The translations under genes were made by a program, and so were the position numbers. 64,000 nt of DNA, from the sequence record LC788705.1. The stretch is one strand, 5' to 3'. Below, piece after piece: positions 4,621 to 58,384 of the stretch. The notes under the pieces are model-generated. The model was given only the letters and a program-made list of their open reading frames with translations. It was not told the origin of the DNA and did not search any database. This stretch comes from Escherichia coli phage NG_A1. Each line of letters starts with the position of its first letter. The stretch's first letter is position 1.

Positions 4621-5139
4621 ATGCCTAAATATAAAGATATAGATTATGACCTTTTTAATAGTTACTTTTATTATGATGAAACAGCGTTATCATTTTTACG
4701 TTGGCGGGAGGATCACGCCGTCGCAGGTGGTTTAAATGGTAATTATTGGCAAGTTGAACTATTAGACATGGGACAATTCAAAGTACATAGAATTATCTTT
4801 TGTATAATGAATGGCGGTATAGATAGCGAGCTAATGATTGATCATATTGATCGTAACACACGTAACAATAACATCTGGAATCTTCGCGCGGTTGATAGTT
4901 CGCAGAATAATTATAATCGTACTCCTAGTGAGTATGAAAACTGTAAGCGTGCTAATGGTATCCCTAGAAACATTTACGTTAATAAAGTTCGCCCCCGTGA
5001 TAGTTTCGGGCGTGATTATTTAACTGCTCAAATTAAGAATCCTATTACTAACAAGCGTGTTAGTAAGTCTGGTTATGATTTACAAGAGTTATTATTATGG
5101 CTTGAAGCTAAAAAAGCTGAATTTGGAATTGTCAATTAA
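4621..5139 (+). CDS. HNH homing endonuclease (HNH_3-type)
   Basis: Motif IDHIDRNTRNNNIWNLR; AT-rich flanks; extended -10 TGATATAAT upstream. Confidence 0.7.
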   Translation: MPKYKDIDYDLFNSYFYYDETALSFLRWREDHAVAGGLNGNYWQVELLDMGQFKVHRIIFCIMNGGIDSELMIDHIDRNTRNNNIWNLRAVDSSQNNYNRTPSEYENCKRANGIPRNIYVNKVRPRDSFGRDYLTAQIKNPITNKRVSKSGYDLQELLLWLEAKKAEFGIVN

Positions 5140-6419: not shown

Positions 6420-6827
6420 ATGACTAACGCTAAAACCGCAAAATTCGCATGGAATGAAGAAAACACTCAGAAAGCTGTTTCCATGTATCAACAGTTAATT
6501 AATGAAAACGGTTTAGATTTCGCAAATAGCGACGGCCTGAAAGAGATTGCAAAAGCAGTAGGCGCGGCCTCCCCCGTATCCGTTCGCTCAAAATTGACCA
6601 GTGCAAAAGCCTATCAAAAAAGCGATAAGCCGCGTAAAGTTGGCGGCGGTAGCTCTGTGCGTAAAGCTCACTATGTGCGCGTTATCGCTAAACATGCTAT
6701 TGATTCCGGCATTATCAAAGACGCCGATGATTTGGCAAGCCTTGAAAGTGCAAAACTTGAAACGCTGGACGCAGTAGCGCAATTGTTAGGCGTTGCCGAT
6801 GAAGTAAAACAGGCCGCAGGCGAATAA
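6420..6827 (+). CDS. A2: Putative pre-early DNA-binding protein, A2-like (135 aa)
   Basis: Size and position immediately upstream of the A1-like gene; basic C-terminal half; AGGAG RBS; name assigned from memory of T5. Confidence 0.45.
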   Translation: MTNAKTAKFAWNEENTQKAVSMYQQLINENGLDFANSDGLKEIAKAVGAASPVSVRSKLTSAKAYQKSDKPRKVGGGSSVRKAHYVRVIAKHAIDSGIIKDADDLASLESAKLETLDAVAQLLGVADEVKQAAGE

Positions 6828-7205: not shown

Positions 7206-8876
7206 ATGATTATTTCCGCAGAAAAACAAACCGTTATCCTGAAAATGGCCGCTGACTTTAACTTCTACGGTAAACGCCTGCGCGCCACTAAATTGGAAGT
7301 TTGTGACGATATTTCGAAAGCGGTATACGATACTACTAAACACTCCACCGCCATTTGTGATTGGTTGGAAGCAAATAAACCAGCGAAACCAAAAGCGGCA
7401 AAAGTAGCAAAAGCCATTAAAAACGATGAGCGCCCAGAAGCGGCGGGAATTGTTTCTAGTACGGTTGAGCAATGGGAAGTAAAACAGGGTAAACGCTTTA
7501 TTATTACGTCGATTCAAAATAATACTTTCCCGCATAAAAACTTTTTAGCCTCACTGGAGCAATTTGCTAAATATATCGGTGCTGATTTGCTTGTTTCTAA
7601 GTATATTTATAATAAAAACGGTTTTCAAAATGGGGAAGGTGCGGATGGAATCAAATATGATTCCGCGTTCGATAAATATATTTGCAGCAAAAACGTGTTT
7701 TTAAATAACCGCCGCTTTGCTTTCATGGCTGAAATTAATGTTTTGCCAACCGCAGATTATCCGCTTTCTGGATTCGCCGAGACTGCAACGGCTTTAAATA
7801 TTGAGGGGCTGGCAATTGGTCACGCTAAAATTACCGCTGAAAGCGTGCCAGCTTTAAAAGGTGAAGTAGTGCGCCGTATGTACTCAACCGGAACGGCAAC
7901 GCTCAAAAACTACATTCAGCAGAAAGCAGGACAAAAAGCGGAAGCACTGCATAACTTCGGTGCGCTTATTGTTGAGTTCGACGACGACGGGGAATTTTTT
8001 GTTCGCCAGCTTGAAACAATGGACGAAAGCGGGGTGTTTTATGATCTGAACGTTTGCGCTACTCCTGCCGGATGCTATGAAACAACGGGGCATGTTTTAG
8101 GCTTGCAATATGGCGATATCCACGCCGAGAAATTAGATGAGGAGTGCGCCGCCGCATCTTGGGGGCATGGTGATACTTATGGGCTTGTGGATATTCTTAA
8201 ACCAAAATATCAGTTTGTACATGACGTGCATGATTTTACATCGCGCAACCATCACAACCGCGCATCGGGTGTATTCCTAGCGAAACAGTATGCAGCCGGA
8301 CGTGATAAAGTTCTGGATGATCTTATCGATACGGGGCGCGTACTGGAATCAATGGAGCGCGATTTTAGTCAAACAATCATTGTTGAATCGAATCACGATT
8401 TGGCGCTATCCCGTTGGCTTGATGATCGTAATGCTAACATCAAAGACGATCCAGCAAACGCCGAGTTATATCACCGCCTGAATGCTGCAATTTACGCGGC
8501 AATCGGTGAACACGACGAAACGTTTAACGTGCTAGATTATGCGTTGCGCAAGGTTGCAGGTTGTGAATTTAACGCCATTTTCCTAACGACTGACCAATCT
8601 TTCAAGATTGCAGGTATTGAATGCGGCGTACACGGTCACAATGGCATTAACGGGAGCCGTGGCAATCCGAAACAGTTTAAGAAATTGGGCAAATTAAACA
8701 CGGGGCACACCCATACCGCCAGCATTTACGGCGGCGTTTATACCGCTGGCGTGTCTGGTAGTCTGGACATGGGTTACAACGTTGGCGCGTCAAGCTGGAC
8801 GCAAACGCATGTTATTACCTATGCAAACGGTCAGCGCACTTTGATCGACTTTAAAAACGGTAAATTCTTTGCGTAA
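7206..8876 (+). CDS. A1: Pre-early protein A1, metallophosphoesterase-like (556 aa)
   Basis: Phosphoesterase-like motifs GDIH, GHGDTYG, ESNHD, GVHGHNG; 556 aa matches T5 A1 size as I recall. Confidence 0.75.
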   Translation: MIISAEKQTVILKMAADFNFYGKRLRATKLEVCDDISKAVYDTTKHSTAICDWLEANKPAKPKAAKVAKAIKNDERPEAAGIVSSTVEQWEVKQGKRFIITSIQNNTFPHKNFLASLEQFAKYIGADLLVSKYIYNKNGFQNGEGADGIKYDSAFDKYICSKNVFLNNRRFAFMAEINVLPTADYPLSGFAETATALNIEGLAIGHAKITAESVPALKGEVVRRMYSTGTATLKNYIQQKAGQKAEALHNFGALIVEFDDDGEFFVRQLETMDESGVFYDLNVCATPAGCYETTGHVLGLQYGDIHAEKLDEECAAASWGHGDTYGLVDILKPKYQFVHDVHDFTSRNHHNRASGVFLAKQYAAGRDKVLDDLIDTGRVLESMERDFSQTIIVESNHDLALSRWLDDRNANIKDDPANAELYHRLNAAIYAAIGEHDETFNVLDYALRKVAGCEFNAIFLTTDQSFKIAGIECGVHGHNGINGSRGNPKQFKKLGKLNTGHTHTASIYGGVYTAGVSGSLDMGYNVGASSWTQTHVITYANGQRTLIDFKNGKFFA

Positions 8877-49678: not shown

Positions 49679-50569
49679 TTATACCAAATCTTTAAGCGAT
49701 TCAGCAACTAAAATTTCAATACGTTTTGCTAACATATCAATTTCTTCTTTATTTAAGTCACCGGGGTCTTTACCTTCGGGTAGAAGAAAGTTAGCAACTA
49801 CAGGTGTTAAACGCGTTTTTGTACGAATTAACTTGGCCAATGCTTGTGCAGCCTTATTACCAGAAGCATCATTATCTAGTAAGATAACAACAACTTTTAC
49901 ACCAGCAATAATATAAGGGCTGAACTTATCTGCAATATTATCCGAGGTAAACTGATGTGTACCAAAGCAACAAGAAGCATAGTCTATACCATTATCCTCT
50001 AGGTTCAGCATATCAAAGATACCTTCAACTAGAATAAGAACTGGAGTATTATATCGTACAGGGAAAATCGGTGGTGAAACTTGTTTTGGTTTTACTAAGT
50101 ATTTAGGAGGGGCAGAACTGTTTATAGAACGACCCAAAAATAGGATATTGCGTCCAACAGCATCTGTGATTGGGAATACAATTCTGCCTTCCCAGTCTGC
50201 TTGGTGTTGGAAAGCAAAATATTTCTTCAAGGTCTTAGAACTTATACCTCGGAAATCACCTTCGAAAAGGTAAGCAGATTCAGGAATTGCAAGATTTGTA
50301 GATCCATTCCTAATCTCTGAAATCTTTTTACGTACCTGCGATAGTCTTGGAGACTGTCGGTACTGAGTCTCATTAAAATAATGGTAAATGCTCGGTATAC
50401 CTTTACCGAAGCCACAACTCAAGCAGTGCATAATACCTGTTTCAGGATCAATACGCAAACTTGGATGTTTATCGTCATGATCTGGATTTAAGCAACAGAT
50501 TAAAATATCTCCACCAGTATCTTTATACTCAATTCCCTTAAGATCAAGTAATTCTGTTATTCGACTCAT
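49679..50569 (-). CDS. DnaG-type DNA primase (296 aa)
   Basis: Zinc-binding CCLNPDHDDKHPS...HCLSCG; TOPRIM motifs EGIFD and LDNDASG. Confidence 0.75.
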   Translation of the reverse strand: MSRITELLDLKGIEYKDTGGDILICCLNPDHDDKHPSLRIDPETGIMHCLSCGFGKGIPSIYHYFNETQYRQSPRLSQVRKKISEIRNGSTNLAIPESAYLFEGDFRGISSKTLKKYFAFQHQADWEGRIVFPITDAVGRNILFLGRSINSSAPPKYLVKPKQVSPPIFPVRYNTPVLILVEGIFDMLNLEDNGIDYASCCFGTHQFTSDNIADKFSPYIIAGVKVVVILLDNDASGNKAAQALAKLIRTKTRLTPVVANFLLPEGKDPGDLNKEEIDMLAKRIEILVAESLKDLV

Positions 50570-51087
50570 GAATTTAACTCCTCCAGTGAAGGATACTTAG
50601 TTGGATCAAAAATCTCTTGAACAGCATTTTCTCCATGTAATTGTAGACGTAGTTCATTGGCTTTAGTGACTGCAAGCTTTAGATCTGCATAATTAAAGAG
50701 CCCACCGTGAACTTTTTCTCCCATAGAATTTACTACTCTTACATGCCATTTGTGATCCCGCTTAAACCAGAAAACTCCCAAGTACCCAGATTTACTTCTA
50801 GCTGTTTTATTTCTGCTATTTTCTTGCCGGGTGGATGGCCTAATATTAATCCATCTATTATCCCAAGTAATTCGATTAATATGGTCTACTTCCCCTGGCA
50901 TATATCCTTCCATATATAGGAAGGCTAGTTGGTGTGCAAAGTATAATTTTCTATCTACCTTTATCCGTATGTATCCACTATCTAGAGTACCCGCAATACT
51001 ACCAGCTTTCTGATTGCCTCTAGATACTTTTCTAGTAAACTCCCCAGTCTCTGGGGAGTAGTCAAATAGTTCTGTTATTCTACTCAT
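50566..51087 (-). CDS. HNH homing endonuclease with AP2-like DNA-binding domain (173 aa)
   Basis: HNH_3 motif VDHINRITWDNRWINIR; AP2-like KSGYLGVFWFKRDHKWHVRV; ATGA overlaps at both ends. Confidence 0.75.
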   Translation of the reverse strand: MSRITELFDYSPETGEFTRKVSRGNQKAGSIAGTLDSGYIRIKVDRKLYFAHQLAFLYMEGYMPGEVDHINRITWDNRWINIRPSTRQENSRNKTARSKSGYLGVFWFKRDHKWHVRVVNSMGEKVHGGLFNYADLKLAVTKANELRLQLHGENAVQEIFDPTKYPSLEELNS

Positions 51088-52556
51088 ATATCGCTGGCCT
51101 GTTCACCTGTTGAATTTTCAGCTTTGTCTTTCTTAGCACGTTTAGATTGAGCCGGCTTATCCTTCTCAATAGGGATAACGAACTCAGCTTCCATTTGAGA
51201 TATATCTTCCATTGCTAGATTGGTAGTGTTATCCATCCGCAGGGTTTCCCAGTTCATTTTAGGCATAAACTTCACGCTATCAGAAGAACGAGTCTTAACG
51301 AAGTCAAACATAATAGCACCTTGACCATTATCAGCTTTTGCAGCATTAAGATTAGCAGCCATGTCTGCGGAATCAAGAATCCCCTTTGACATACGTGTTC
51401 TACCATCTTGATCGATCTGGTAAGGAGCTACGCCAGCCACGTTATGTTTCTGGCAGATGGATTTGAAAGACGAGCTAACAACCATCTGTTCTTTCCAGTC
51501 ATACATATCAATGGTTTTAGAATCTGGAAGTCGGGTTTGGTTAATATAGTCCAGTAAAGCTACTGTAACTTTATCACCATATCTAGCAACTAATTTATTT
51601 AATTCTACGTCAACTGTTGTAATGGACAGTTCAGGGTCATAAACGATAATCATAGGAGTATGTAGTTCATACCCTTCTATTAGCTTACTCTCCATATCGT
51701 AGAAATCACTCATCTTAGCCATTGTATACTGTTTAACGAAGTTATCGAAAAGCTCTTCACCACCGTTGAACATTCTAGCTCTAGTTCTGGCTAATCTCAA
51801 TAGAGCTGCACCTTCTAGAGTATTATTACGCATTGCTAGTGCTGATACCCCGGCTAACATGGCTAGATTACGTCTAAATACTTCATGTTCTTTCATCTCA
51901 ATTGAGAAGTATGGAGCAATATCTCCATTCAAATATTGCTGAACCTGTATGTTTGAACAGATAATGGATTTACCAGTACCACGCCAACCACCAAGCAGTA
52001 ACGTTTCTGTGCGAGCTAAACCAATTTGAGCGTCGAACTCATTACAAATACCAAGAGCGATTAAGTTCAGTTTGGTATCTTCTTCTCTCTGGAAAATACG
52101 CATGTTATCTGCGTTGAATACTTTTCCAGTATTCGTTACTTTCTCTTCTAATTTTAAGTGAAGGGAGGCAACTCGGTTGAGAATTTCTCCCTGATCCAGC
52201 ATTGTTAAATCTTGAAGCACGTCTGTTTCTAGAAGCTTCAGGAATAAATCCTGTGTATATTCAGCCTCTAGGACTTCAAGTGCCTGTTCCATGCTCACTT
52301 CTGGAATTTGAGTGTTAGCTAAGACGACTAGAGCTTGAGAAAGGCGGGCGTTCCTATTAGCTTCAAGCATAAGTGCGTCAATGGACGGCATTGTGTTATA
52401 TTTTTTATAATAATTCTGGACGGCTTGGTAAATTGAGGAGAAAGCGTCATTAAAATGATCTTTATGCAGTTTTGAGAATGTTTCCAATGCTATTTGCTTC
52501 TGTTCGGAAGCTAGAAGCATCTTCAACACTACAGCTTGCACGTTAAACAAGGTCAT
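51084..52556 (-). CDS. DnaB-like replicative helicase (490 aa from the RBS-supported ATG)
   Basis: Walker A GGWRGTGKS; AAAGGAGA RBS before ATG at 52556; track ORF starts at an upstream alternative codon. Confidence 0.7.
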   Translation of the reverse strand: MTLFNVQAVVLKMLLASEQKQIALETFSKLHKDHFNDAFSSIYQAVQNYYKKYNTMPSIDALMLEANRNARLSQALVVLANTQIPEVSMEQALEVLEAEYTQDLFLKLLETDVLQDLTMLDQGEILNRVASLHLKLEEKVTNTGKVFNADNMRIFQREEDTKLNLIALGICNEFDAQIGLARTETLLLGGWRGTGKSIICSNIQVQQYLNGDIAPYFSIEMKEHEVFRRNLAMLAGVSALAMRNNTLEGAALLRLARTRARMFNGGEELFDNFVKQYTMAKMSDFYDMESKLIEGYELHTPMIIVYDPELSITTVDVELNKLVARYGDKVTVALLDYINQTRLPDSKTIDMYDWKEQMVVSSSFKSICQKHNVAGVAPYQIDQDGRTRMSKGILDSADMAANLNAAKADNGQGAIMFDFVKTRSSDSVKFMPKMNWETLRMDNTTNLAMEDISQMEAEFVIPIEKDKPAQSKRAKKDKAENSTGEQASDI

Positions 52557-52586
52557 TCTCCTTTGCACGCTTTCGTGCCTTCTAAA

Positions 52587-52620
52587 TGCAAAAAGGGGAA
52601 GGAGCATAGCCCCCTCCCCT
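52587..52620 (-). terminator. Intrinsic terminator on the minus strand
   Basis: 11-bp G/C-rich stem with two G-U pairs followed by UUUUU on the minus strand. Confidence 0.6.
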
Positions 52621-52638
52621 TAGGTTTAATTTACCAGA

Positions 52639-53406
52639 TTATTCAGCAGCCGCAGCTTTTGCATCCAGTTTAGCACGCTTAGCGGCACCATCATAGTCCT
52701 TAGCAACCAGACCACGACGAGACAGCATAGATTTAACACCGCGCTCAGACTTACCAGTTTTCTCAGCGATCTCAGCAACAGTCATGTTAACCAGATCCAG
52801 ACCTTCTAACAGATCTTCACGAGTTTTAGCACTTGAGGTTTCCTGTACCGGCATAGCAGCGATACGACCTTCACGAAGCAGGCTCAGAGCTTTACCGCGG
52901 ATCTGCTTAATATTACGACCGAAGTGAGCAGCGATAGCTTCAATAGTAGCACCAGCAACAACCTGATTAACAAAATCAGTTTCTTCATCTGGAGTGAAGG
53001 AACGAACAGCAGCAGCTTTTTCGGTTGGCTTAACAGAAGCGGTCATTTCCAGACTCAGAATCTTACCCTGTACCTGCTTAGCACCGAACTGACCACCAGC
53101 CACAGCAGCAGCGATTTCAGCATAGGTATACTGACCAGCATGAGCGTTCAGGAAATCAACCAGTTCAGCTTCCTGCTCAGGAGTCCACGGGGATTTCTGT
53201 ACTTCGTTAGCTTTCTGTACTTCAAAACCTTCTTTACGCAGTTTAGAGCCAACAGAGCGAGCGGTAACATCTTTGCCAGTTTCAGCGGCCAGTTCAGCAG
53301 CGATAGCAGCTACTTGTTCTTGAGAGATTACAGCAACACCCAGAGCAGTGGCTTTTGCTTTCAGAGACTCGGTTACACCTTCTACGTTCCAGTTCAGTTT
53401 AGACAT
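52639..53406 (-). CDS. DNA-binding protein with three tandem HTH-like repeats, T5 D5-like (255 aa)
   Basis: Three repeats of the type T(I/V)AEIA...G...VK..LS; E. coli-optimised codon usage. Confidence 0.5.
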   Translation of the reverse strand: MSKLNWNVEGVTESLKAKATALGVAVISQEQVAAIAAELAAETGKDVTARSVGSKLRKEGFEVQKANEVQKSPWTPEQEAELVDFLNAHAGQYTYAEIAAAVAGGQFGAKQVQGKILSLEMTASVKPTEKAAAVRSFTPDEETDFVNQVVAGATIEAIAAHFGRNIKQIRGKALSLLREGRIAAMPVQETSSAKTREDLLEGLDLVNMTVAEIAEKTGKSERGVKSMLSRRGLVAKDYDGAAKRAKLDAKAAAAE

Positions 53407-54172
53407 TATTATTTTTCTCCAATAGTTCTTTAATCGACAGGATTTCTATCCCATTCGTTTCGGCTTTCTTATAAGATGAGGAAGAACGTTTTGATTCATC
53501 CTCACAGATTAGGTATTTGACGTCTTTGGTAACGGATTTCTTAACCGTGTATCCTAGACCTTCTAAGTAGTTTGTTGCATCCGTTCGATTTGCAAAATCT
53601 TGCAAAGATCCGGTAATACATACCGCGATTCCATTTGGCTGGGCAACTAAATCATCAGTAACGACGGTTTTAGCTTTAGCACCAGTTGAGAATTTCCACG
53701 GTAATTCGATAACATCCTTGCCTTGTGGGGAATTTAGCCAGGCTTTATAATTTTCTCCAGCCTTGCCGTCAGCCTTCACATCATGGAAGCTAGTGCAATT
53801 TTGGGATAATTTCTTTGCTGCAACCTCTCCAATTAGAGGGATTCCTAAAGAACCGAGAACTGAACCAAAGTCAATGTCTCCGCGAACTTTAGTATTTAAT
53901 TCGCTAATTAACTTAGCGGCAACCTTGCTACCCACGGCTCTAACCAAATCTTCTTCGGTTAGGTAAAAGAGTTCTGAAATCTTCGTCAGCTCCAGCTTCT
54001 CAATAGTTTTCGGGCCAAAGCCCTTTAACTTCATTTTTGAACAGAAGTTCTCAATTAACTTACTTGATTGCGCTGGACAGTTGGACTTATTCCGACAGAA
54101 TAATTGTCCGTTGACAAGATCTAGCTTAGAACCACAAGAGGGACATTGTGTTGGAATTTCGATTTTCATCAA
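53399..54172 (-). CDS. NAD-dependent DNA ligase, C-terminal fragment (zinc finger, HhH, BRCT) (257 aa)
   Basis: Zinc finger CPSCGSKLDLVNGQLFCRNKSNCPAQ; HhH GFGPKTIEKL; BRCT-like C-terminus. Confidence 0.75.
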   Translation of the reverse strand: MMKIEIPTQCPSCGSKLDLVNGQLFCRNKSNCPAQSSKLIENFCSKMKLKGFGPKTIEKLELTKISELFYLTEEDLVRAVGSKVAAKLISELNTKVRGDIDFGSVLGSLGIPLIGEVAAKKLSQNCTSFHDVKADGKAGENYKAWLNSPQGKDVIELPWKFSTGAKAKTVVTDDLVAQPNGIAVCITGSLQDFANRTDATNYLEGLGYTVKKSVTKDVKYLICEDESKRSSSSYKKAETNGIEILSIKELLEKNNNV

Positions 54173-54199
54173 ATTTCTTCCTTATCAATTTATATAAAT

Positions 54200-54228
54200 A
54201 TTATAGCAAGTATTTAAGCATTTAGCAA
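54200..54228 (-). promoter_or_regulatory. Early sigma70-type promoter (TTGCTA-N17-TATAAT) inside the gap between the ligase fragments
   Basis: -35 at 54223-54228, -10 at 54200-54205 on the minus strand. Confidence 0.6.
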
Positions 54229-54371
54229 CTACAATTTTAACTAACTTTGCTTACCCTCGCCATAACTTTCTATCCCTCAACTGAATGATAATAGTATATA
54301 CCTAAGCGGCGAAAATGTCAATAACCACTTTATAATTCCGATATGGTAGATGGGTAGCAAAGGGTTATGTA

Positions 54372-55343
54372 TTAATCGTATACTCGCTCTACTATGCACG
54401 GGATTACACCACCAGCACGAATCACTCGAATTTGGCAACCGATCTCTAGATCAAGAGAGTTAATATAATCAACGTTATTAAGAGTCGCTTTAACAATTGT
54501 AGCATCATCAATAATTACCGGTTCGAAATAACCAACTGGAGTTACTTTACCAGAAGCCCCTACCTGCCATTCAACTTTAGTAAGAGTTGTAATCTCACCT
54601 TCTTCATCCTCTTTAATAGCGAATGCTCCACGAGGGAATTTATTAGTCCAGCCTTCTCGGAAGAACTTGTTGTTGTCGTTAATACGAACAACTTTACCGT
54701 CCGTCGGAATCCATTTAAAGAAGGAACGCACATTAACAACTGTTAAGAAGTTCTCATTCTCTAGCCAAAGCATATCTTTTAAATACGCTTCTGTAATACC
54801 TACAGATTCAGCAGAACACTGGATACCATATGCAACGAAGATTAAACCACCTTCCCCGATACGTTGTACAAAATCATCACTATCTTTGAGGTTAATAGCA
54901 CCAGAGGCAAAGTTACGTTTATTTTCTACTTCTTTTGTAATTAGAACTTCACCAGTGATTTGAGTAGGTACTTTTTGGGAAATCTTTTTAGGGATGTTCA
55001 GCAATCTTACGTTGCTTGTGACATCATTCCCTAGAATACCATTACCACGAGTTAGTGCTTGAACAAATTCGCCATTAATATATAACAGAGAAATCGCACA
55101 ACCATCTAACTTATCAGTTTCTACTTGACCTAACGGGTTAAATGGGGGTTTATCTCCACGATTATAATAAACTTTCTGTAAAGAATACATACGATACAGA
55201 TGTGGAATATCACCCTTAGGTCCGATCTCTTCTTCTAACGGGAAGCGTTTTACCAGGCAATCATACTCCTCATCTGAGATTAAAGACATACCTTGATAAT
55301 ATGCTTCTTGGCAACGTTTAATAAAGTCTTTTACATTGGTCAT
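54372..55343 (-). CDS. NAD-dependent DNA ligase, N-terminal fragment (adenylation and OB domains) (323 aa)
   Basis: Adenylation motif I TDKLDGCAISLLY (KxDG). Confidence 0.75.
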   Translation of the reverse strand: MTNVKDFIKRCQEAYYQGMSLISDEEYDCLVKRFPLEEEIGPKGDIPHLYRMYSLQKVYYNRGDKPPFNPLGQVETDKLDGCAISLLYINGEFVQALTRGNGILGNDVTSNVRLLNIPKKISQKVPTQITGEVLITKEVENKRNFASGAINLKDSDDFVQRIGEGGLIFVAYGIQCSAESVGITEAYLKDMLWLENENFLTVVNVRSFFKWIPTDGKVVRINDNNKFFREGWTNKFPRGAFAIKEDEEGEITTLTKVEWQVGASGKVTPVGYFEPVIIDDATIVKATLNNVDYINSLDLEIGCQIRVIRAGGVIPCIVERVYD

Positions 55344-55616
55344 TTATTCTGCCTCATAGTATGTGGGTTGTCTAGTGGATCCGTGCCATGTATAATTTTT
55401 GCAAAGATGCAAATATGTAGTTTTTACTAGCCTATCTGACAACGGAGAGTATATTTCAGCTACTAATACTTCTTTTTCGTAATGAAGTGAAATCAGCTTA
55501 TACCCACTTCTAGTTTTAGTATACTTTTCTCCATTAATCTTCTCCTCCCACATAAGTATAAGAGGCTGTCCGATGTACGGGAAAGGTTTAAGTGTACTTA
55601 TACTTATCTTTTTCAC
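55344..55616 (-). CDS. Hypothetical early protein (90 aa)
   Basis: ORF downstream of the promoter at 55647-55675. Confidence 0.45.
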   Translation of the reverse strand: MKKISISTLKPFPYIGQPLILMWEEKINGEKYTKTRSGYKLISLHYEKEVLVAEIYSPLSDRLVKTTYLHLCKNYTWHGSTRQPTYYEAE

Positions 55617-55646
55617 TTTGCAACCCTCTCATTAATTTATATAAAT

Positions 55647-55675
55647 ATTATATAACAAAACTGAGTTGAAAGCAA
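55647..55675 (-). promoter_or_regulatory. Early sigma70-type promoter (TTGCTT-N17-TATAAT)
   Basis: -35 at 55670-55675, -10 at 55647-55652 on the minus strand. Confidence 0.6.
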
Positions 55676-55702
55676 GTACATTTATAAAGAAAAAGCCAAG
55701 AA

Positions 55703-56011
55703 CTAGGCATTCTTGGCTTTGAGTTCTTCAGCTCGTTTCTGTACTTCATGTAAAACCTCAGATTCGCTAAGAATCTGTGTAAACGCATAGAAAAGCTGTG
55801 ATGTTGTTTCTAGGGTGTAAGGAAAAGAGAAGCCAGATTTCGTTGGAAACCATTCATCATTAATATCAAGAAGCCAGTAACGAATACCCATGTATAGATT
55901 CCCACGAAATTCAGATACTGTTAATCTTACTTGTTCCCCCTCCTTCTCCCAAAGTATGATGGACTGGTCATCAACGTGTCCTTCATAGTTTTGATTTACC
56001 TGTTCGCTCAT
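55703..56011 (-). CDS. PC4-like ssDNA-binding protein (102 aa)
   Basis: LTVSEFRGNLYMGIRYW...FPTKSGFSF resembles the PC4/p15 fold signature; a PC4 homologue has been reported in T5. Confidence 0.55.
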   Translation of the reverse strand: MSEQVNQNYEGHVDDQSIILWEKEGEQVRLTVSEFRGNLYMGIRYWLLDINDEWFPTKSGFSFPYTLETTSQLFYAFTQILSESEVLHEVQKRAEELKAKNA

Positions 56012-56061
56012 TTACATATCCCAAATACACAAAAAGCCCCATATAGGGGCTAATTGGTTTC

Positions 56062-56358
56062 TTATCGGCCTACTGGAGAAGCACGATCTAACTCTGATTG
56101 GAGGCTAGTCACACGACGGACTTTCTCGACAGGAATAAAACGGAAGCTATCATTAGTACGAGAGAAGACAAGGATCTCATCATCTTTCGCTTTACGAATA
56201 CGTTCACGTTTAATACGCTCAGCCAGATATTTATCTTGGGCTGGATCAAATTCCATCGTACCCTGAAGGTACGTGGTTCCTTTCTGACGAAGTTTCTCGT
56301 AATGAAGATAAAACTCACCAAATTTTTCACATTGTGCGATAATTTCAGCTTTGGTCAT
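56062..56358 (-). CDS. Hypothetical early protein (98 aa)
   Basis: ORF track. Confidence 0.45.
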   Translation of the reverse strand: MTKAEIIAQCEKFGEFYLHYEKLRQKGTTYLQGTMEFDPAQDKYLAERIKRERIRKAKDDEILVFSRTNDSFRFIPVEKVRRVTSLQSELDRASPVGR

Positions 56359-56394
56359 AACTGTGTTCCTTTTGTTGGTGGATTTATCTAAAAA

Positions 56395-56805
56395 TTACTT
56401 AGTGATAGCTCGGATTGCTTCTGCCAGATGAGCAGCCGCTTTACCGGTCAGTTTGTCGATAATTGCATCATCCAGAAAATCTGGTGCTAGGCCAGCATCA
56501 GAGAATGCTGAACGAAGATCGGCATGAGCTTGGGCTTTGGAAGTGCGAGAACCACCAGAAGCTTTTTCTCCAGTAGATGCACTAGATTTAGAAGCAGAGC
56601 CAGCAGCTTTCTTGATATATACACCTGCTTTGGTCAACTTCATACGAAAACCGTTCGGAGTTACACCATTTTCCTGAGCAATTTCGCTAACAATTTCCAT
56701 GCTAACACCCGGACGTTCATCCTCTGGGAATTGCTCCATACGAGCAACGTATTCGGAAGACATTTTTTCGAACAGTTCATCAGTCCACTGAGTTGGAGTA
56801 GTCAT
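56395..56805 (-). CDS. HTH-repeat DNA-binding protein, paralogue of the D5-like protein (136 aa)
   Basis: Segment VSMEIVSEIAQENGVTPNGFRMKLTKAG matches the repeat unit of 52639..53406. Confidence 0.45.
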   Translation of the reverse strand: MTTPTQWTDELFEKMSSEYVARMEQFPEDERPGVSMEIVSEIAQENGVTPNGFRMKLTKAGVYIKKAAGSASKSSASTGEKASGGSRTSKAQAHADLRSAFSDAGLAPDFLDDAIIDKLTGKAAAHLAEAIRAITK

Positions 56806-56862
56806 ATTTTATATTTCCTTAATTAAGAATTAAACAGAATAGTTCTTTCAAACTATGAGAAT

Positions 56863-56891
56863 ATTATATCAAGAATTATAGGATTAAGCAA
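56863..56891 (-). promoter_or_regulatory. Early sigma70-type promoter (TTGCTT-N17-TATAAT)
   Basis: -35 at 56886-56891, -10 at 56863-56868 on the minus strand. Confidence 0.6.
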
Positions 56892-56908
56892 CTGAAATTT
56901 TTCTGTAG

Positions 56909-57184
56909 TTACTCCACCAGGCCAACAGCAAGCATATCATCAATGCTGGCAATCTCCCAATCGTCAGCAATAGCTTCGCATACTGTTAACGTAACAACCT
57001 CACTATAGGGATAATTACCAGCTACCCAGGTATGTTGGGTAACTACATCTGAGTCAGCGTCTAAAGTTAGTAACACTAAGCCATTATTGTCATTATCCCA
57101 GCTTCTACGATATAGAGTTTTTACTTCCCCATCTTTAAGCAAATCTGTTAGCTTACTCACGGCGTTTTCCTTTTTCTTTATCAA
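56909..57184 (-). CDS. Hypothetical early protein (91 aa)
   Basis: ORF track. Confidence 0.45.
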   Translation of the reverse strand: MIKKKENAVSKLTDLLKDGEVKTLYRRSWDNDNNGLVLLTLDADSDVVTQHTWVAGNYPYSEVVTLTVCEAIADDWEIASIDDMLAVGLVE

Positions 57185-57857
57185 GTTTCAGGGCAGCCTT
57201 AGCAGCTTCGTTAATCAACGTAATAATTTCTTCACGAGTCCACTTATATCCTAGAGATTTTACGTCTACCCCTAACTTTTCCAGATGTTTAACAGAAGCC
57301 AGCTCGTAATTCATATAATGAACGTTCTGTTGTTTGCCTTCTGATAGAAGCCATACACGGTAACAACCAACAGGGTTATCCATTGCTTTTTTGATTTCAC
57401 CGATACACTGGTATCCAGGAACCCAAACAAGCTCACCAACTGCAAATTCTTCTGCTACAGCATCATCAGGAATAATTGGAGGATTCAATGGATCTACAAT
57501 ATCATTCAAACGAAGCAGAGCACCATATCGTTCCAGAACAGATTTAACCATTGCTACAGAGCGGTAATTACGATCGGCAATCTCTTCGAAAGAATCACCA
57601 GATAAATACTGCTCAATAACGTTAGCTAACTCAATGCCTTCAATGAGTGTGCCACGTTTCTTTTTCTTCATTTCGGCAACTTGAATCTGGCGGTCTTGCC
57701 ATTCTTCAATCATCCTTTCCATAGTTGTGTTGGATGATACGCCAAGCATTTCACATGCTGCTTTCTTAGTACCACCGTTCTCTAGATGCTCTATAACTTT
57801 TTTAAAGACTTCATCAGGGATTTCATGGATATGTTTCTTTCTGCGAGAACCAGCCAT
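57153..57857 (-). CDS. Putative HTH DNA-binding/regulatory protein, first gene downstream of the PN25-type promoter (234 aa)
   Basis: N-terminal HTH-like KKAACEMLGVSSNTTMERMIEEW; GAGGAG RBS. Confidence 0.5.
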   Translation of the reverse strand: MAGSRRKKHIHEIPDEVFKKVIEHLENGGTKKAACEMLGVSSNTTMERMIEEWQDRQIQVAEMKKKKRGTLIEGIELANVIEQYLSGDSFEEIADRNYRSVAMVKSVLERYGALLRLNDIVDPLNPPIIPDDAVAEEFAVGELVWVPGYQCIGEIKKAMDNPVGCYRVWLLSEGKQQNVHYMNYELASVKHLEKLGVDVKSLGYKWTREEIITLINEAAKAALKLDKEKGKRRE

Positions 57858-57925: not shown

Positions 57926-58384
57926 TTAATTTGGATAGAGTTCGGACTTAAAATTAGCCCTAACTTTTTTAGCCTCTTCTATAGTATTGCACTGCTGGTA
58001 CTTACGAATAGACCCTTTCTGCATTAGCACACAGTATTTATCGCCCCTCATGTAGATATTAGGCTCGCCCAACTTATTGTCTTTACGTACATTAATATTG
58101 TGCATTTGCTTAGATCTATTGGAGTCTTCTAAATTCTCTATAAAGTTGCAATCTTTAATCCTGTTTTTGTGGTCTATCTCTTCTGGTATATACCCCTTAT
58201 GATATAAGAATACCAGCTGATGCTCTCCCCAGTGCCTACGCTTAAACCCTATTCTTATATACCCTTTATGTTTACCCCCGGCAAACTTACCTACTAGACT
58301 CTTCTGTCTTGTTTTCTTCCATTTAAGATGGCCTGTTTCAGGATCATACTCAAAAGCCTCCCTAACCTCTTCCTGTGTTATCAT
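57926..58384 (-). CDS. HNH homing endonuclease with AP2-like domain (152 aa)
   Basis: HNH_3 motif IDHKNRIKDCNFIENL; paralogue of the HNH at 50566..51087. Confidence 0.7.
   Translation of the reverse strand: MITQEEVREAFEYDPETGHLKWKKTRQKSLVGKFAGGKHKGYIRIGFKRRHWGEHQLVFLYHKGYIPEEIDHKNRIKDCNFIENLEDSNRSKQMHNINVRKDNKLGEPNIYMRGDKYCVLMQKGSIRKYQQCNTIEEAKKVRANFKSELYPN

Follow-up and report, generated by a model that had tools for sequence, protein, structure and literature searches.

The window analysed here is the whole 64,000-nt stretch of Escherichia coli phage NG_A1 (LC788705.1), a T5-like phage sequence with which T5_ev212 shares 98.9% nucleotide identity. Two ORFs on its minus strand, both present exactly at the coordinates first given for them, encode a 255-aa, 27 kDa protein at 52639..53406 (-) and a 136-aa protein at 56395..56805 (-). 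They are not a new family but D5 and D3, two classical genes of T5. D5, an early dsDNA-binding protein, is identified by the profile phrog_323 ('transcriptional regulator, D5-like'; E 1.5e-71, residues 1-253 on positions 3-270 of 319) and by the T5_ev212 annotation 'D5 protein/DNA-binding protein', and D3 by phrog_1725 ('DNA binding protein'; E 1.7e-50, residues 1-136 on positions 1-127 of 129) and the T5_ev212 annotation 'D3 protein'. Many T5-like contigs in IMG/VR encode a D5 that is 100% identical over residues 1-255, and D5 of T5 (T5.118; phrog_323) is essentially the identical protein at the identical location, with nothing substantial that differs. The D5 gene sits downstream of ligB and upstream of a gene for a DnaB-like helicase, while D2 and D3 lie upstream of it on the same strand, in the early replication block. 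In related contigs D2 is always found upstream of D3, and contigs whose D5 is 47-59% identical retain the D2-D3-...-D5 order; both the gene identity and the conserved D2-D3-D5 synteny are thereby directly observed. Homologues of D5 number 715 at E <= 1e-3, nearly all of 240-267 aa, and the D3 family comprises 250 clusters at 50% identity (E <= 1e-3).

D5 is a four-fold repeat, each unit of which is predicted to be a tri-helical helix-turn-helix (HTH) domain of ~45-60 aa. The first-pass annotation had seen three copies of a ~25-aa unit in this protein; the motif is real and corresponds to helix 2-turn-helix 3, but it is only a part of the full domain, and the first of the four units (VAAIAAELAAETGKDVTARSVGSKLRKEG) had been overlooked. 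Unit 1 (53218..53391 (-), aa 6-63) is delimited by AlphaFold2 and hhalign, with helices at 11-22, 29-43 and 49-58. Unit 2 (53044..53187 (-), aa 74-121; helices 76-88, 95-101 and 109-118), defined by hhalign and Pfam, would be a Myb/SANT-like HTH, and unit 3 (52867..53001 (-), aa 136-180; helices 139-150, 155-162 and 166-178), on which hhalign, AlphaFold2 and Pfam agree, a homeodomain-like one. Unit 4 (52699..52821 (-), aa 196-236; Pfam and hhalign) holds the motif originally given as the example; its HTH helices span 210-217 and 221-231, and the position of its helix 1 is modelled by AlphaFold2 as coil. The linkers between the HTH domains are short and conserved, and the chain ends in a conserved segment with the sequence 'GAAKRAKLDAK' (52645..52689 (-), aa 240-254), modelled as a helix; D237, G240, A241 and K246 are conserved columns.

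Structure prediction, one of the checks originally proposed, agrees with this layout: the AlphaFold2 model of D5 has a pLDDT of 92.8 and contains 3+3+3+2 helices followed by the C-terminal helix. Its pTM is only 0.51, so that the inter-domain geometry is not confidently predicted, as is expected for beads on a string. In the model, D5 combines the three-helix bundle, the HTH and a basic recognition helix, and an HTH fold is thus predicted for it; the N-terminal domain of D3 likewise has three helices. The recognition helices of D5 carry net charges of +2 to +4 and have in common a motif of the type [V/I]-x-[G/S]-K-x-L, and over its full length the protein is neutral (pI 6.8).

Formal analysis finds the internal repeat to be significant. 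When the D5 profile, built from 38 homologues, was compared with itself with no preset boundaries, residues 5-170 aligned to residues 73-225 in a one-unit shift of 150 columns (probability 96.5%, E 9.7e-10), with further self-matches of unit 4 to unit 1 (E 7.5e-4) and of a two-unit shift (E 0.008). The strongest pair is that of units 2 and 3 (hhalign, 96.2%, E 2.4e-9, 53 columns, 32% identity). It could be argued that the repeats are a compositional artefact of Ala/Lys/Glu-rich helices, or a generic HTH likeness, with no true duplication behind them: alanine makes up 17.6% of D5, the matches between several of the units are weak (E 0.011 for units 2 and 4, E 0.0017 for units 1 and 3), and a Pfam HTH family matches unit 4 roughly as well as its sister units do. 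This explanation is largely refuted, and we give it next to no credence, as the lowest E-value among 30 column-shuffled profiles was 0.033 against 9.7e-10 for the in-register shift, and none of 200 residue shuffles attained the best off-diagonal Smith-Waterman score of the single sequence (77 versus 38.8 +/- 7.2). The C-terminal half of D3, which is not an HTH, showed no similarity to the HTH units (hhalign E 0.2-0.5), and units 2 and 3 have in common a W/F-T-P-x-E-E start and a 'QGK-LSL' helix.

Pfam families of HTH type recur along the protein. Across the 38 homologues, Sigma70_r4_2, HTH_23, Myb and HTH_33 are found at E <= 1e-3, with Myb_DNA-binding on unit 2 in 7/38, HTH_23 on unit 3 in 13/38 and Sigma70_r4_2 on unit 4 in 28/38. 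In the D5 of the window itself, the scores of unit 3 for HTH_23 (21.8 bits against a gathering cut-off of 24.6), of unit 2 for Myb (17.6 against 24.4) and of unit 1 for HTH_33 (16.1 against 25) fall short, and Sigma70_r4_2 on unit 4 scores 28.7 bits, above its cut-off of 25.7 (E 1.1e-6). That match, and its recurrence among the homologues, would be accounted for if D5 mimicked sigma region 4 on RNA polymerase, binding the beta-flap or displacing region 4 of sigma-70 and so redirecting the host enzyme. [quoted passage not shown]

Two more literal assignments were considered and rejected. D5 is not a sigma factor, having no Sigma70_r2 match and only region 4, over 20 residues of which a weak and partial match to region 3 also falls. 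Nor is it a Myb/SANT repeat protein: units 1-3 each open with a single conserved Trp/Phe (W6, W74 and F137) and not with three, and the Myb score is below the cut-off. The likeness of the units to Myb is confined to their shape.

The 136-aa protein had been credited with one related unit, and this holds: by single-sequence BLASTP the similarity of D3 to D5 unit 4 is marginal (E 0.011), but between profiles it is clear, the D3 N-terminal domain matching unit 4 (hhalign, 91%, E 1.1e-6) and the D3 family matching unit 1 (88%, E 3.2e-6 to 3.4e-6). This N-terminal HTH domain occupies 56608..56787 (-) (aa 7-66; helices 9-23, 28-45 and 50-60), as delimited by AlphaFold2 and by hhalign to units 1 and 4 of D5 and to A2. 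The remainder of the protein (56401..56607 (-)) consists of a Gly/Ser/Lys-rich linker, predicted to be disordered (aa 67-89; pLDDT < 50 at aa 68-86), followed by a helical domain at the C-terminus (aa 90-135; helices 90-103, 113-117 and 121-135) with an invariant 'KLTGKAA'. DNA binding is assigned to D3 only by annotation.

A third paralogue, lying outside the coordinates of the first-pass annotation, is the pre-early protein A2 (6420..6827 (+), 135 aa), which has a D3-like layout. It was found among 534 six-frame segments of the window with HMMs of D5 unit 1 (E 1.4e-4) and of the D3 N-terminal domain (E 1.1e-5), and in related phages its homologues are annotated as A2/DNA binding protein. Like D3, it matches phrog_1725 over its full length (E 3.4e-52). 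The A2 and D3 families align over 92 columns (hhalign, 94.8%, E 5.3e-8), with the C-terminal thirds outside the alignment, and unit 1 of D5 matches the A2 family at 95.5% (E 1.5e-8). Precomputed PF26822 matches are recorded for every A2 homologue and for some homologues of D3 and D5. D5, D3 and A2 are related proteins, and the earlier idea of a family of HTH-type early DNA-binding proteins stands in so far as the two ORFs are mutually related early-region genes; they are, however, the classical D5 and D3, and the pre-early member had been missed. A2 and D3 differ in stage and charge, A2 being pre-early and basic (pI 8.8) and D3 early and acidic (pI 5.7). A2 has been described as binding DNA and as indispensable to the second step of DNA transfer (10.64898/2026.04.02.716235).

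A possible fourth, more distant relative is D2 (57153..57857 (-), 234 aa), in whose N-terminal half two HTH units may be present. Its Pfam matches (HTH_28/HTH_23 at aa 20-54; HTH_58 at aa 79-116) are all below cut-off, and its profile at aa 9-115 matches D5 aa 133-235 at 49% (E 1.7e-4), a kinship that we regard as suggestive only.

As for how the array arose, the proposal that it was built by repeat expansion is only partly borne out. Units 2 and 3 are clear duplicates, and unit 1 is by its profile matches of the A2/D3 type. Unit 4 has matches both to D3 (E 1e-6) and to Pfam Sigma70_r4_2, so D5 may owe its array partly to duplication and partly to the recruitment of HTH domains. No tandem repeat was found at the DNA level in the D5 gene, which indicates that the duplications are old; relatives in Vibrio and marine phages keep the four-unit layout at 47-59% identity, and any expansion would therefore be ancient.

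The codons of both genes are highly optimised, as had been noted from the sequence. D5 has the highest codon adaptation index (CAI) of the 68 ORFs in the window (0.700) and also the lowest Nc (31.8), and D3 ranks third (0.545), against a window median of 0.255; the major head protein, at 0.654, is below D5. The CAI was computed with the E. coli w-table of Sharp & Li 1987, and Nc is independent of that table. This codon usage points to high expression of D5 and D3. The start of D5 and the stop of ligB overlap by 8 nt, and upstream of ligB-D5 lie two sigma-70 promoter-like sites (54200..54321 (-); TTGACA-17-TATACT and TTGCTA-17-TGnTATAAT), which are weak evidence, the count of promoter-like matches around ligB-D5 not being above shuffle expectation. 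An intrinsic-terminator-like hairpin with a 13-bp stem and a T run (52593..52621 (-)) follows 18 nt past the D5 stop codon. The strongest codon bias, the promoter-like sites and the strong terminator-like hairpin together fit a very abundant early D5. In virion preparations of phiR2-01, the D5 homologue was among the most abundant proteins (PMC8624392).

In a whole-chain Foldseek search of solved structures (PDB), D5 matched nothing significantly (best E 0.06); its best structure matches were tandem-HTH or winged-helix arrays, namely SelB, the Myb repeats of CDC5, Tc3, POU and the paired domain. The C-terminal WH1-4 of SelB, Myb R2R3/CDC5, paired/POU and the bipartite DNA-binding domains of the Tc3 and Mos1 transposases likewise string together, through flexible linkers, several small DNA- or RNA-binding domains of three helices, each of which docks its recognition helix. 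They differ from D5 in being specific for a sequence or structure and low in abundance, whereas D5, with its four units, is codon-biased like a structural protein. The sequence specificity of Tc3, POU and the paired domain, and the PHROG and GenBank label 'transcription factor/regulator', favour a reading of D5 as a sequence-specific transcription factor whose four HTHs would read a composite operator at T5 late/early promoters, in the manner of paired/POU/Myb R2R3, and activate late promoters directly and without coating. The codon optimisation of D5, above that of the capsid protein, suits a stoichiometric DNA coater better than a regulator, and the classical picture, with which a cited title agrees, is of a general dsDNA-binding protein. 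The 1979-80 biochemistry of Rice, Ficht and Moyer reportedly found low sequence specificity and cooperative coating of DNA. D5 alone is moreover toxic to E. coli (10.64898/2026.07.11.737809). In favour of a specific factor, a preprint suggests that D5 specifically recognises a stem-loop of the msDNA (10.64898/2026.07.11.737809), and how T5 switches from early to late genes was unexplained as of PMC7472727. On balance, we consider a specific factor of this kind unlikely.

The preprint presents D5, 'containing an HTH motif' and with a monomer mass of 26 kDa by mass photometry, as the trigger of retron-Kva2, its HTH binding the retron msDNA in an AlphaFold3 model (10.64898/2026.07.11.737809). The published escape mutations G53D, W74* and G232D (10.64898/2026.07.11.737809) fall on nearly invariant columns of our alignment, and the D5 of the window carries the matching residues at these positions. 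The window protein thus agrees with T5 D5 there as well. Classically, the D5 gene is defined by conditional-lethal mutants. The stop W74* in a retron escaper (10.64898/2026.07.11.737809) is odd for such a gene and counts against the explanation preferred here, as do the pTM of the D5 model, the lack of a significant whole-chain structure match, the coil in place of helix 1 of unit 4 and the acidic pI of D3.

That explanation, which we consider probable as a whole, is that these are the T5 D5 and D3 genes, D5 acting as an abundant, early, multivalent DNA coater with four HTHs and D3 and A2 being its one-HTH paralogues. Both proteins were already known; in the literature searched, no description of D5 as a four-fold HTH array or of its relationship to D3 and A2 was found, and the four-domain architecture and the D5-D3-A2 kinship are modest additions. 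The proposed action would resemble in function that of HU/IHF, H-NS, Fis and phage histone-like proteins, abundant low-specificity dsDNA binders that remodel the template for replication and transcription, while the fold of D5 differs from those of HU/IHF, H-NS and Fis, none of which gave a Pfam match in D5 at E <= 1 or appeared among its top structure matches. D3 and A2 presumably bind DNA through their HTH, and their C-terminal domain may serve self-association or association with a partner; a function for the C-terminal helix of D5 can only be inferred. According to McCorquodale 1979, as cited in PMC12630848, D5 is a DNA-binding protein that affects replication and late gene expression. A D5 monomer, with four loosely tethered HTH domains entering successive major grooves, could grip several turns of duplex, its affinity being high through multivalency and its sequence specificity low. 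Abundant D5 would then coat the replicating phage DNA, and on the coated template replication and early transcription would be damped and the late genes could become expressible.

The two open reading frames (ORFs) picked out by the first-pass annotation, of 255 aa at 52639..53406(-) and 136 aa at 56395..56805(-), are borne out by the ORF listing and correspond to the D5 and D3 genes of T5-like phages. Over 52400-57000, DNA identity to these phages (Tequintavirus) is 98.9%, with 453 matching phage records. The counterparts of the two ORFs in Escherichia phage T5_ev212 carry the annotations 'D5 protein/DNA-binding protein' and 'D3 protein' and lie within an early replication block ordered helicase, D2, D3, PC4-like ssDNA-binding protein, ligA, ligB, D5, DnaB-like helicase, primase and DNA polymerase. 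PHROGs places D5 in phrog_323 ('transcriptional regulator, D5-like', E 1.5e-71) and D3 in phrog_1725 ('DNA binding protein', E 1.7e-50). Many IMG/VR T5-like contigs encode a D5 that is 100% identical across 255 residues, and every sufficiently long related contig keeps D2, D3 and D5 in the same order and on the same strand. Sequences 85-100% identical to D5, D3 and the pre-early protein A2 of the window are also deposited under Enterococcus faecalis, Brucella melitensis, Citrobacter and Salmonella, most likely as T5-like phage contamination or carry-over in assemblies.

The internal repeat of D5 is real, on three lines of evidence. When the protein is aligned with itself, the best off-diagonal Smith-Waterman score is 77, against 38.8 +/- 7.2 for 200 shuffles, none of which reaches 77 (0/200). 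A profile of 38 homologues (50-80% identity), compared with itself without preset boundaries, places residues 5-170 on 73-225 as its best non-trivial alignment (150 columns, probability 96.5%, E 9.7e-10), an exact shift by one unit in which three successive units stay in register; it also places unit 4 on unit 1 (E 7.5e-4) and recovers a two-unit shift (E 0.008), while the lowest E-value among 30 column-shuffled controls is 0.033. The idea that the repeats are an artefact of composition is refuted by these shuffle controls, and we give it next to no credence. The helix-turn-helix (HTH) units, U1-U4, lie at aa 6-63, 74-121, 136-180 and 196-236. When units are cut beforehand and compared, the strongest pair is U2-U3 (E 2.4e-9, 53 columns, 32% identity), followed by U3-U4 (E 9e-5), U1-U2 (E 5.6e-4), U1-U4 (E 6.7e-4), U1-U3 (E 1.7e-3) and U2-U4 (E 0.011). 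A control with the C-terminal, non-HTH half of D3 gives hhalign E-values of 0.2-0.5 against every unit, and this half is rejected as an extra HTH unit. The first-pass annotation was right in seeing a repeat, but it counted three copies where there are four, having missed the N-terminal one. At the DNA level, the only tandem repeat in D5 is a trivial match of 12 nt and 1.9 copies, and relatives from Vibrio, Pectobacterium and marine viral contigs, down to about 47% identity, retain the four-unit layout and a length of 240-267 aa, from which we infer that the unit duplications are ancient.

An AlphaFold2 model made from the alignment of 38 homologues (mean pLDDT 92.8) predicts that each unit is an HTH domain of three helices and about 45-60 aa, with helices at 11-22, 29-43 and 49-58 in unit 1, 76-88, 95-101 and 109-118 in unit 2, and 139-150, 155-162 and 166-178 in unit 3; unit 4 has helices at 210-217 and 221-231, its first helix not being modelled, and a C-terminal helix follows at 240-254. 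The pTM of 0.51 means that the domains are modelled confidently and their mutual orientation is uncertain. The repeated stretch of about 25 aa described earlier is thus not the whole unit and corresponds to helix 2-turn-helix 3 of the larger domain. The recognition helices carry a net charge of +2 to +4 in a protein that is neutral overall (pI 6.8). Whole-chain Foldseek comparisons with the PDB give no significant match for D5 (the best being the four winged helices of SelB, E 0.06) or for D3 (best E 0.14), a failure that follows from flexible multi-domain geometry; the non-significant neighbours of D5 are nevertheless consistently tandem-HTH arrays, namely CDC5 Myb repeats, Tc3, Mos1, POU and TFIIB. 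The best BFVD match is to D5 of a Vibrio phage (E 3e-27), and various phage proteins with several HTH domains come next.

Pfam matches over the 38 homologues fall on all four units: Sigma70_r4_2 on unit 4 (28/38), HTH_23 on unit 3 (13/38), Myb on unit 2 (7/38) and HTH_33 on unit 1 (5/38), Sigma70_r4_2 being the sole match above the gathering score in the window's own D5. A D5 that mimics sigma region 4 and acts on RNA polymerase is nonetheless very improbable, since the protein lacks region 2 and is absent among the T5 proteins bound to RNA polymerase (PMC7472727). The lack of region 2 likewise leads us to reject D5 as a sigma factor.

D3 was said to carry one related unit, and profiles uphold this. 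Its single-sequence match to D5 unit 4 is marginal (BLASTP E 0.011, 27 residues) and is presumably what was first noticed, whereas at profile level the relationship is solid: the D3 N-terminal domain matches unit 4 at E 1.1e-6 and unit 1 at E 3.4e-6 (60 columns), and the D3 family matches full-length D5 with a probability of 88% (E 3.2e-6). In the D3 model, an N-terminal three-helix domain (helices 9-23, 28-45 and 50-60) is joined through a disordered linker of Gly/Ser/Lys (68-86, pLDDT < 50) to a helical C-terminal domain in which 'KLTGKAA' is invariant. Scanning the unit HMMs over the window's full set of 534 six-frame segments yields one further match on the far side of the window, a 135-aa ORF at 6420..6827(+), with E 1.4e-4 for the unit 1 HMM and 1.1e-5 for the D3 N-domain HMM. 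This is the pre-early gene A2, which adjoins A1 (7206..8876) and lies 46 kb from the D5/D3 region. Profile comparison makes A2 a paralogue of both D3 and D5 unit 1, with an HTH-linker-helical layout like that of D3. Over 92 columns spanning the HTH, linker and first C-terminal helix, the A2 family matches the D3 family at 94.8% (E 5.3e-8); it matches D5 unit 1 at 95.5% (E 1.5e-8), and the A2 sequence 'AKFAWNEENT' nearly equals the consensus D5 N-terminus 'MAKFTWNEENT'. Plain HMM cross-searches over 79 related viral loci agree, with D3 matching D5 ORFs (E 1e-5 to 8e-4), and A2 matching both D3 ORFs (E 1e-7 to 6e-4) and D5 ORFs (E about 1e-4). The link between A2 and D3 is implicit in public resources, since phrog_1725 takes in both and precomputed Pfam annotation assigns PF26822 to every A2 homologue as well as to some of the D3 and D5 homologues; our literature search found no paper discussing it. 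D2 (234 aa, 57153..57857(-)) is only a lead as a possible member of the HTH family: its N-terminal half has two sub-threshold Pfam HTH matches (aa 20-54 and 79-116), and its profile matches D5 units 3-4 weakly (49-58% probability, E about 1e-4, with 1.7e-4 at 49%). The label 'helicase' given to D2 by phrog_3611 looks unsupported, Pfam giving sub-threshold HTH matches only.

The codon adaptation index (CAI), computed for 68 ORFs from the Sharp & Li E. coli adaptiveness table, has a median of 0.255 in the window. D5 ranks first (0.700), ahead of the major head protein (0.654, second), D3 (0.545, third), A2 (0.429, sixth), the major tail protein (0.362, tenth) and D2 (0.349, twelfth). The reference-free Nc is also lowest in D5 (31.8), so the earlier view that both genes use optimized codons is correct. 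The NAD-dependent DNA ligase is encoded in two genes, ligA (54372..55343(-)) and ligB (53399..54172(-)), whose spacer of about 200 nt contains the region's two best promoter-like sites, at 54321..54293(-) and 54228..54200(-) upstream of ligB; the ligB stop and the D5 start overlap by 8 nt. A further promoter-like TTGCTT-17 nt-TATAAT lies upstream of D3 (56891..56863), read by eye and unscored by the scanner. Shuffle controls show no excess of promoter-like matches in the region, which makes these sites weak indications. A strong terminator-like hairpin with a 13-bp stem follows D5 at 52621..52593(-) and reaches into the longest DnaB-like helicase ORF (51084..52607(-)), covering its first five codons; the true start of the helicase is probably a downstream ATG such as Met18 ('MTLFNVQ').

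Between D3 and ligA, 55703..56011(-) encodes 102 aa with a PC4 (transcriptional coactivator p15) ssDNA-binding domain (PF02229, E 8e-8, above the cut-off). The 91-aa ORF at 56909..57184(-), annotated shorter in T5_ev212 (252 nt), is labelled 'transcriptional regulator' by PHROGs (phrog_643) and weakly matches, below threshold, a Thoeris anti-defence Tad2-like domain (E 0.006). A 'DH(I/K)(N/D)R...N' motif shared by the translations of the ORFs at 50566..51087(-), 57926..58384(-) and 4621..5139(+), each 150-175 aa long, suggests three HNH-type homing endonucleases that have inserted between genes of the replication or pre-early class.

Rice, Ficht and Moyer reportedly purified D5 as an abundant dsDNA protein with cooperative binding. 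The reading that we favour, and hold to be probable, is that abundant early D5 coats phage DNA through its four HTH domains, D3 and A2 being single-domain paralogues with an association domain. The four tethered domains would occupy successive major grooves of dsDNA in a multivalent manner of low specificity, coating of replicating phage DNA would tune replication and the early-to-late switch, and the C-terminal domain of D3 and A2 would mediate association. That D5 is instead a sequence-specific transcription factor reading a composite operator seems unlikely to us. D5 has been described as a DNA-binding protein with effects on replication and on late gene expression (McCorquodale 1979, cited in PMC12630848). 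A D5 homologue ranks with the most abundant proteins found in virion preparations of Yersinia phage phiR2-01 and is called a major 'virion-associated' protein, yet it is no T5 virion component (PMC8624392); it may be carried over with DNA through sheer abundance or be partly packaged.

According to a July 2026 preprint, the protein that triggers the type IX retron-Kva2 is T5 D5 (10.64898/2026.07.11.737809). In that study D5 measures 26 kDa by mass photometry and is toxic on its own, and its 'helix-turn-helix motif' is proposed to bind the msDNA stem-loop, mimicking the retron's winged-helix protein. The mutations in escape phages are D5 G53D, W74*, V149I and G232D plus D2 E76Q, or D3 E30Q and G85D, although D5 is the sole one to trigger the retron when expressed alone. 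The window proteins have every wild-type residue at these positions; D5 G53, W74 and G232 are near-invariant alignment columns, G53 lying within the unit 1 recognition helix and G232 at the end of that of unit 4. D2 E76Q falls at the start of D2's second HTH. Separately, T5 ORF55, a DNA-binding trigger of DRT4 (PMC12783706), was considered as D5 or D3 and rejected, as it lies in a deletable region and is PriA-NTD-like.

A2 is DNA-binding and essential to second-step transfer (10.64898/2026.04.02.716235). A2, D3, D5 and perhaps the N-terminal half of D2 might, though we doubt it, be one paralogous HTH module used in relay on the phage genome. A2 would then grip first-step-transfer DNA for second-step entry, D3 and D5 would load later onto replicating DNA, and retron-Kva2 would sense the common module rather than D5 alone, which would explain escape mutations in D5, D3 and D2 even though D5 alone triggers the retron. 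If so, D3 and A2 should bind the kind of DNA structures that units 1 and 4 of D5 bind, and D3 should modulate D5 loading.

The D5 and D3 genes, their DNA-binding nature and the HTH were already known, and tandem-HTH proteins are a familiar kind. The present analysis adds three points: D5 is formally shown to be an array of four HTH domains; D5, D3 and A2 are related, possibly together with D2, a relationship that PHROGs and Pfam already imply in part; and no gene in the window is more codon-optimized than D5. For biology at large the result is ordinary: a phage DNA-binding protein that was already known, made up of copies of the most common DNA-binding fold. The additions are unsurprising but useful to work on T5. 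The four-domain array offers a concrete basis for dissecting D5 binding unit by unit and places the retron-escape changes G53D and G232D within, or at the end of, individual recognition helices. Since D3 and the essential, mechanistically obscure A2 share the unit 1-type domain of D5, lessons from one can be transferred to the others, and codon optimization beyond that of the capsid gene argues for a stoichiometric, template-coating role of D5 in the T5 early-to-late switch.
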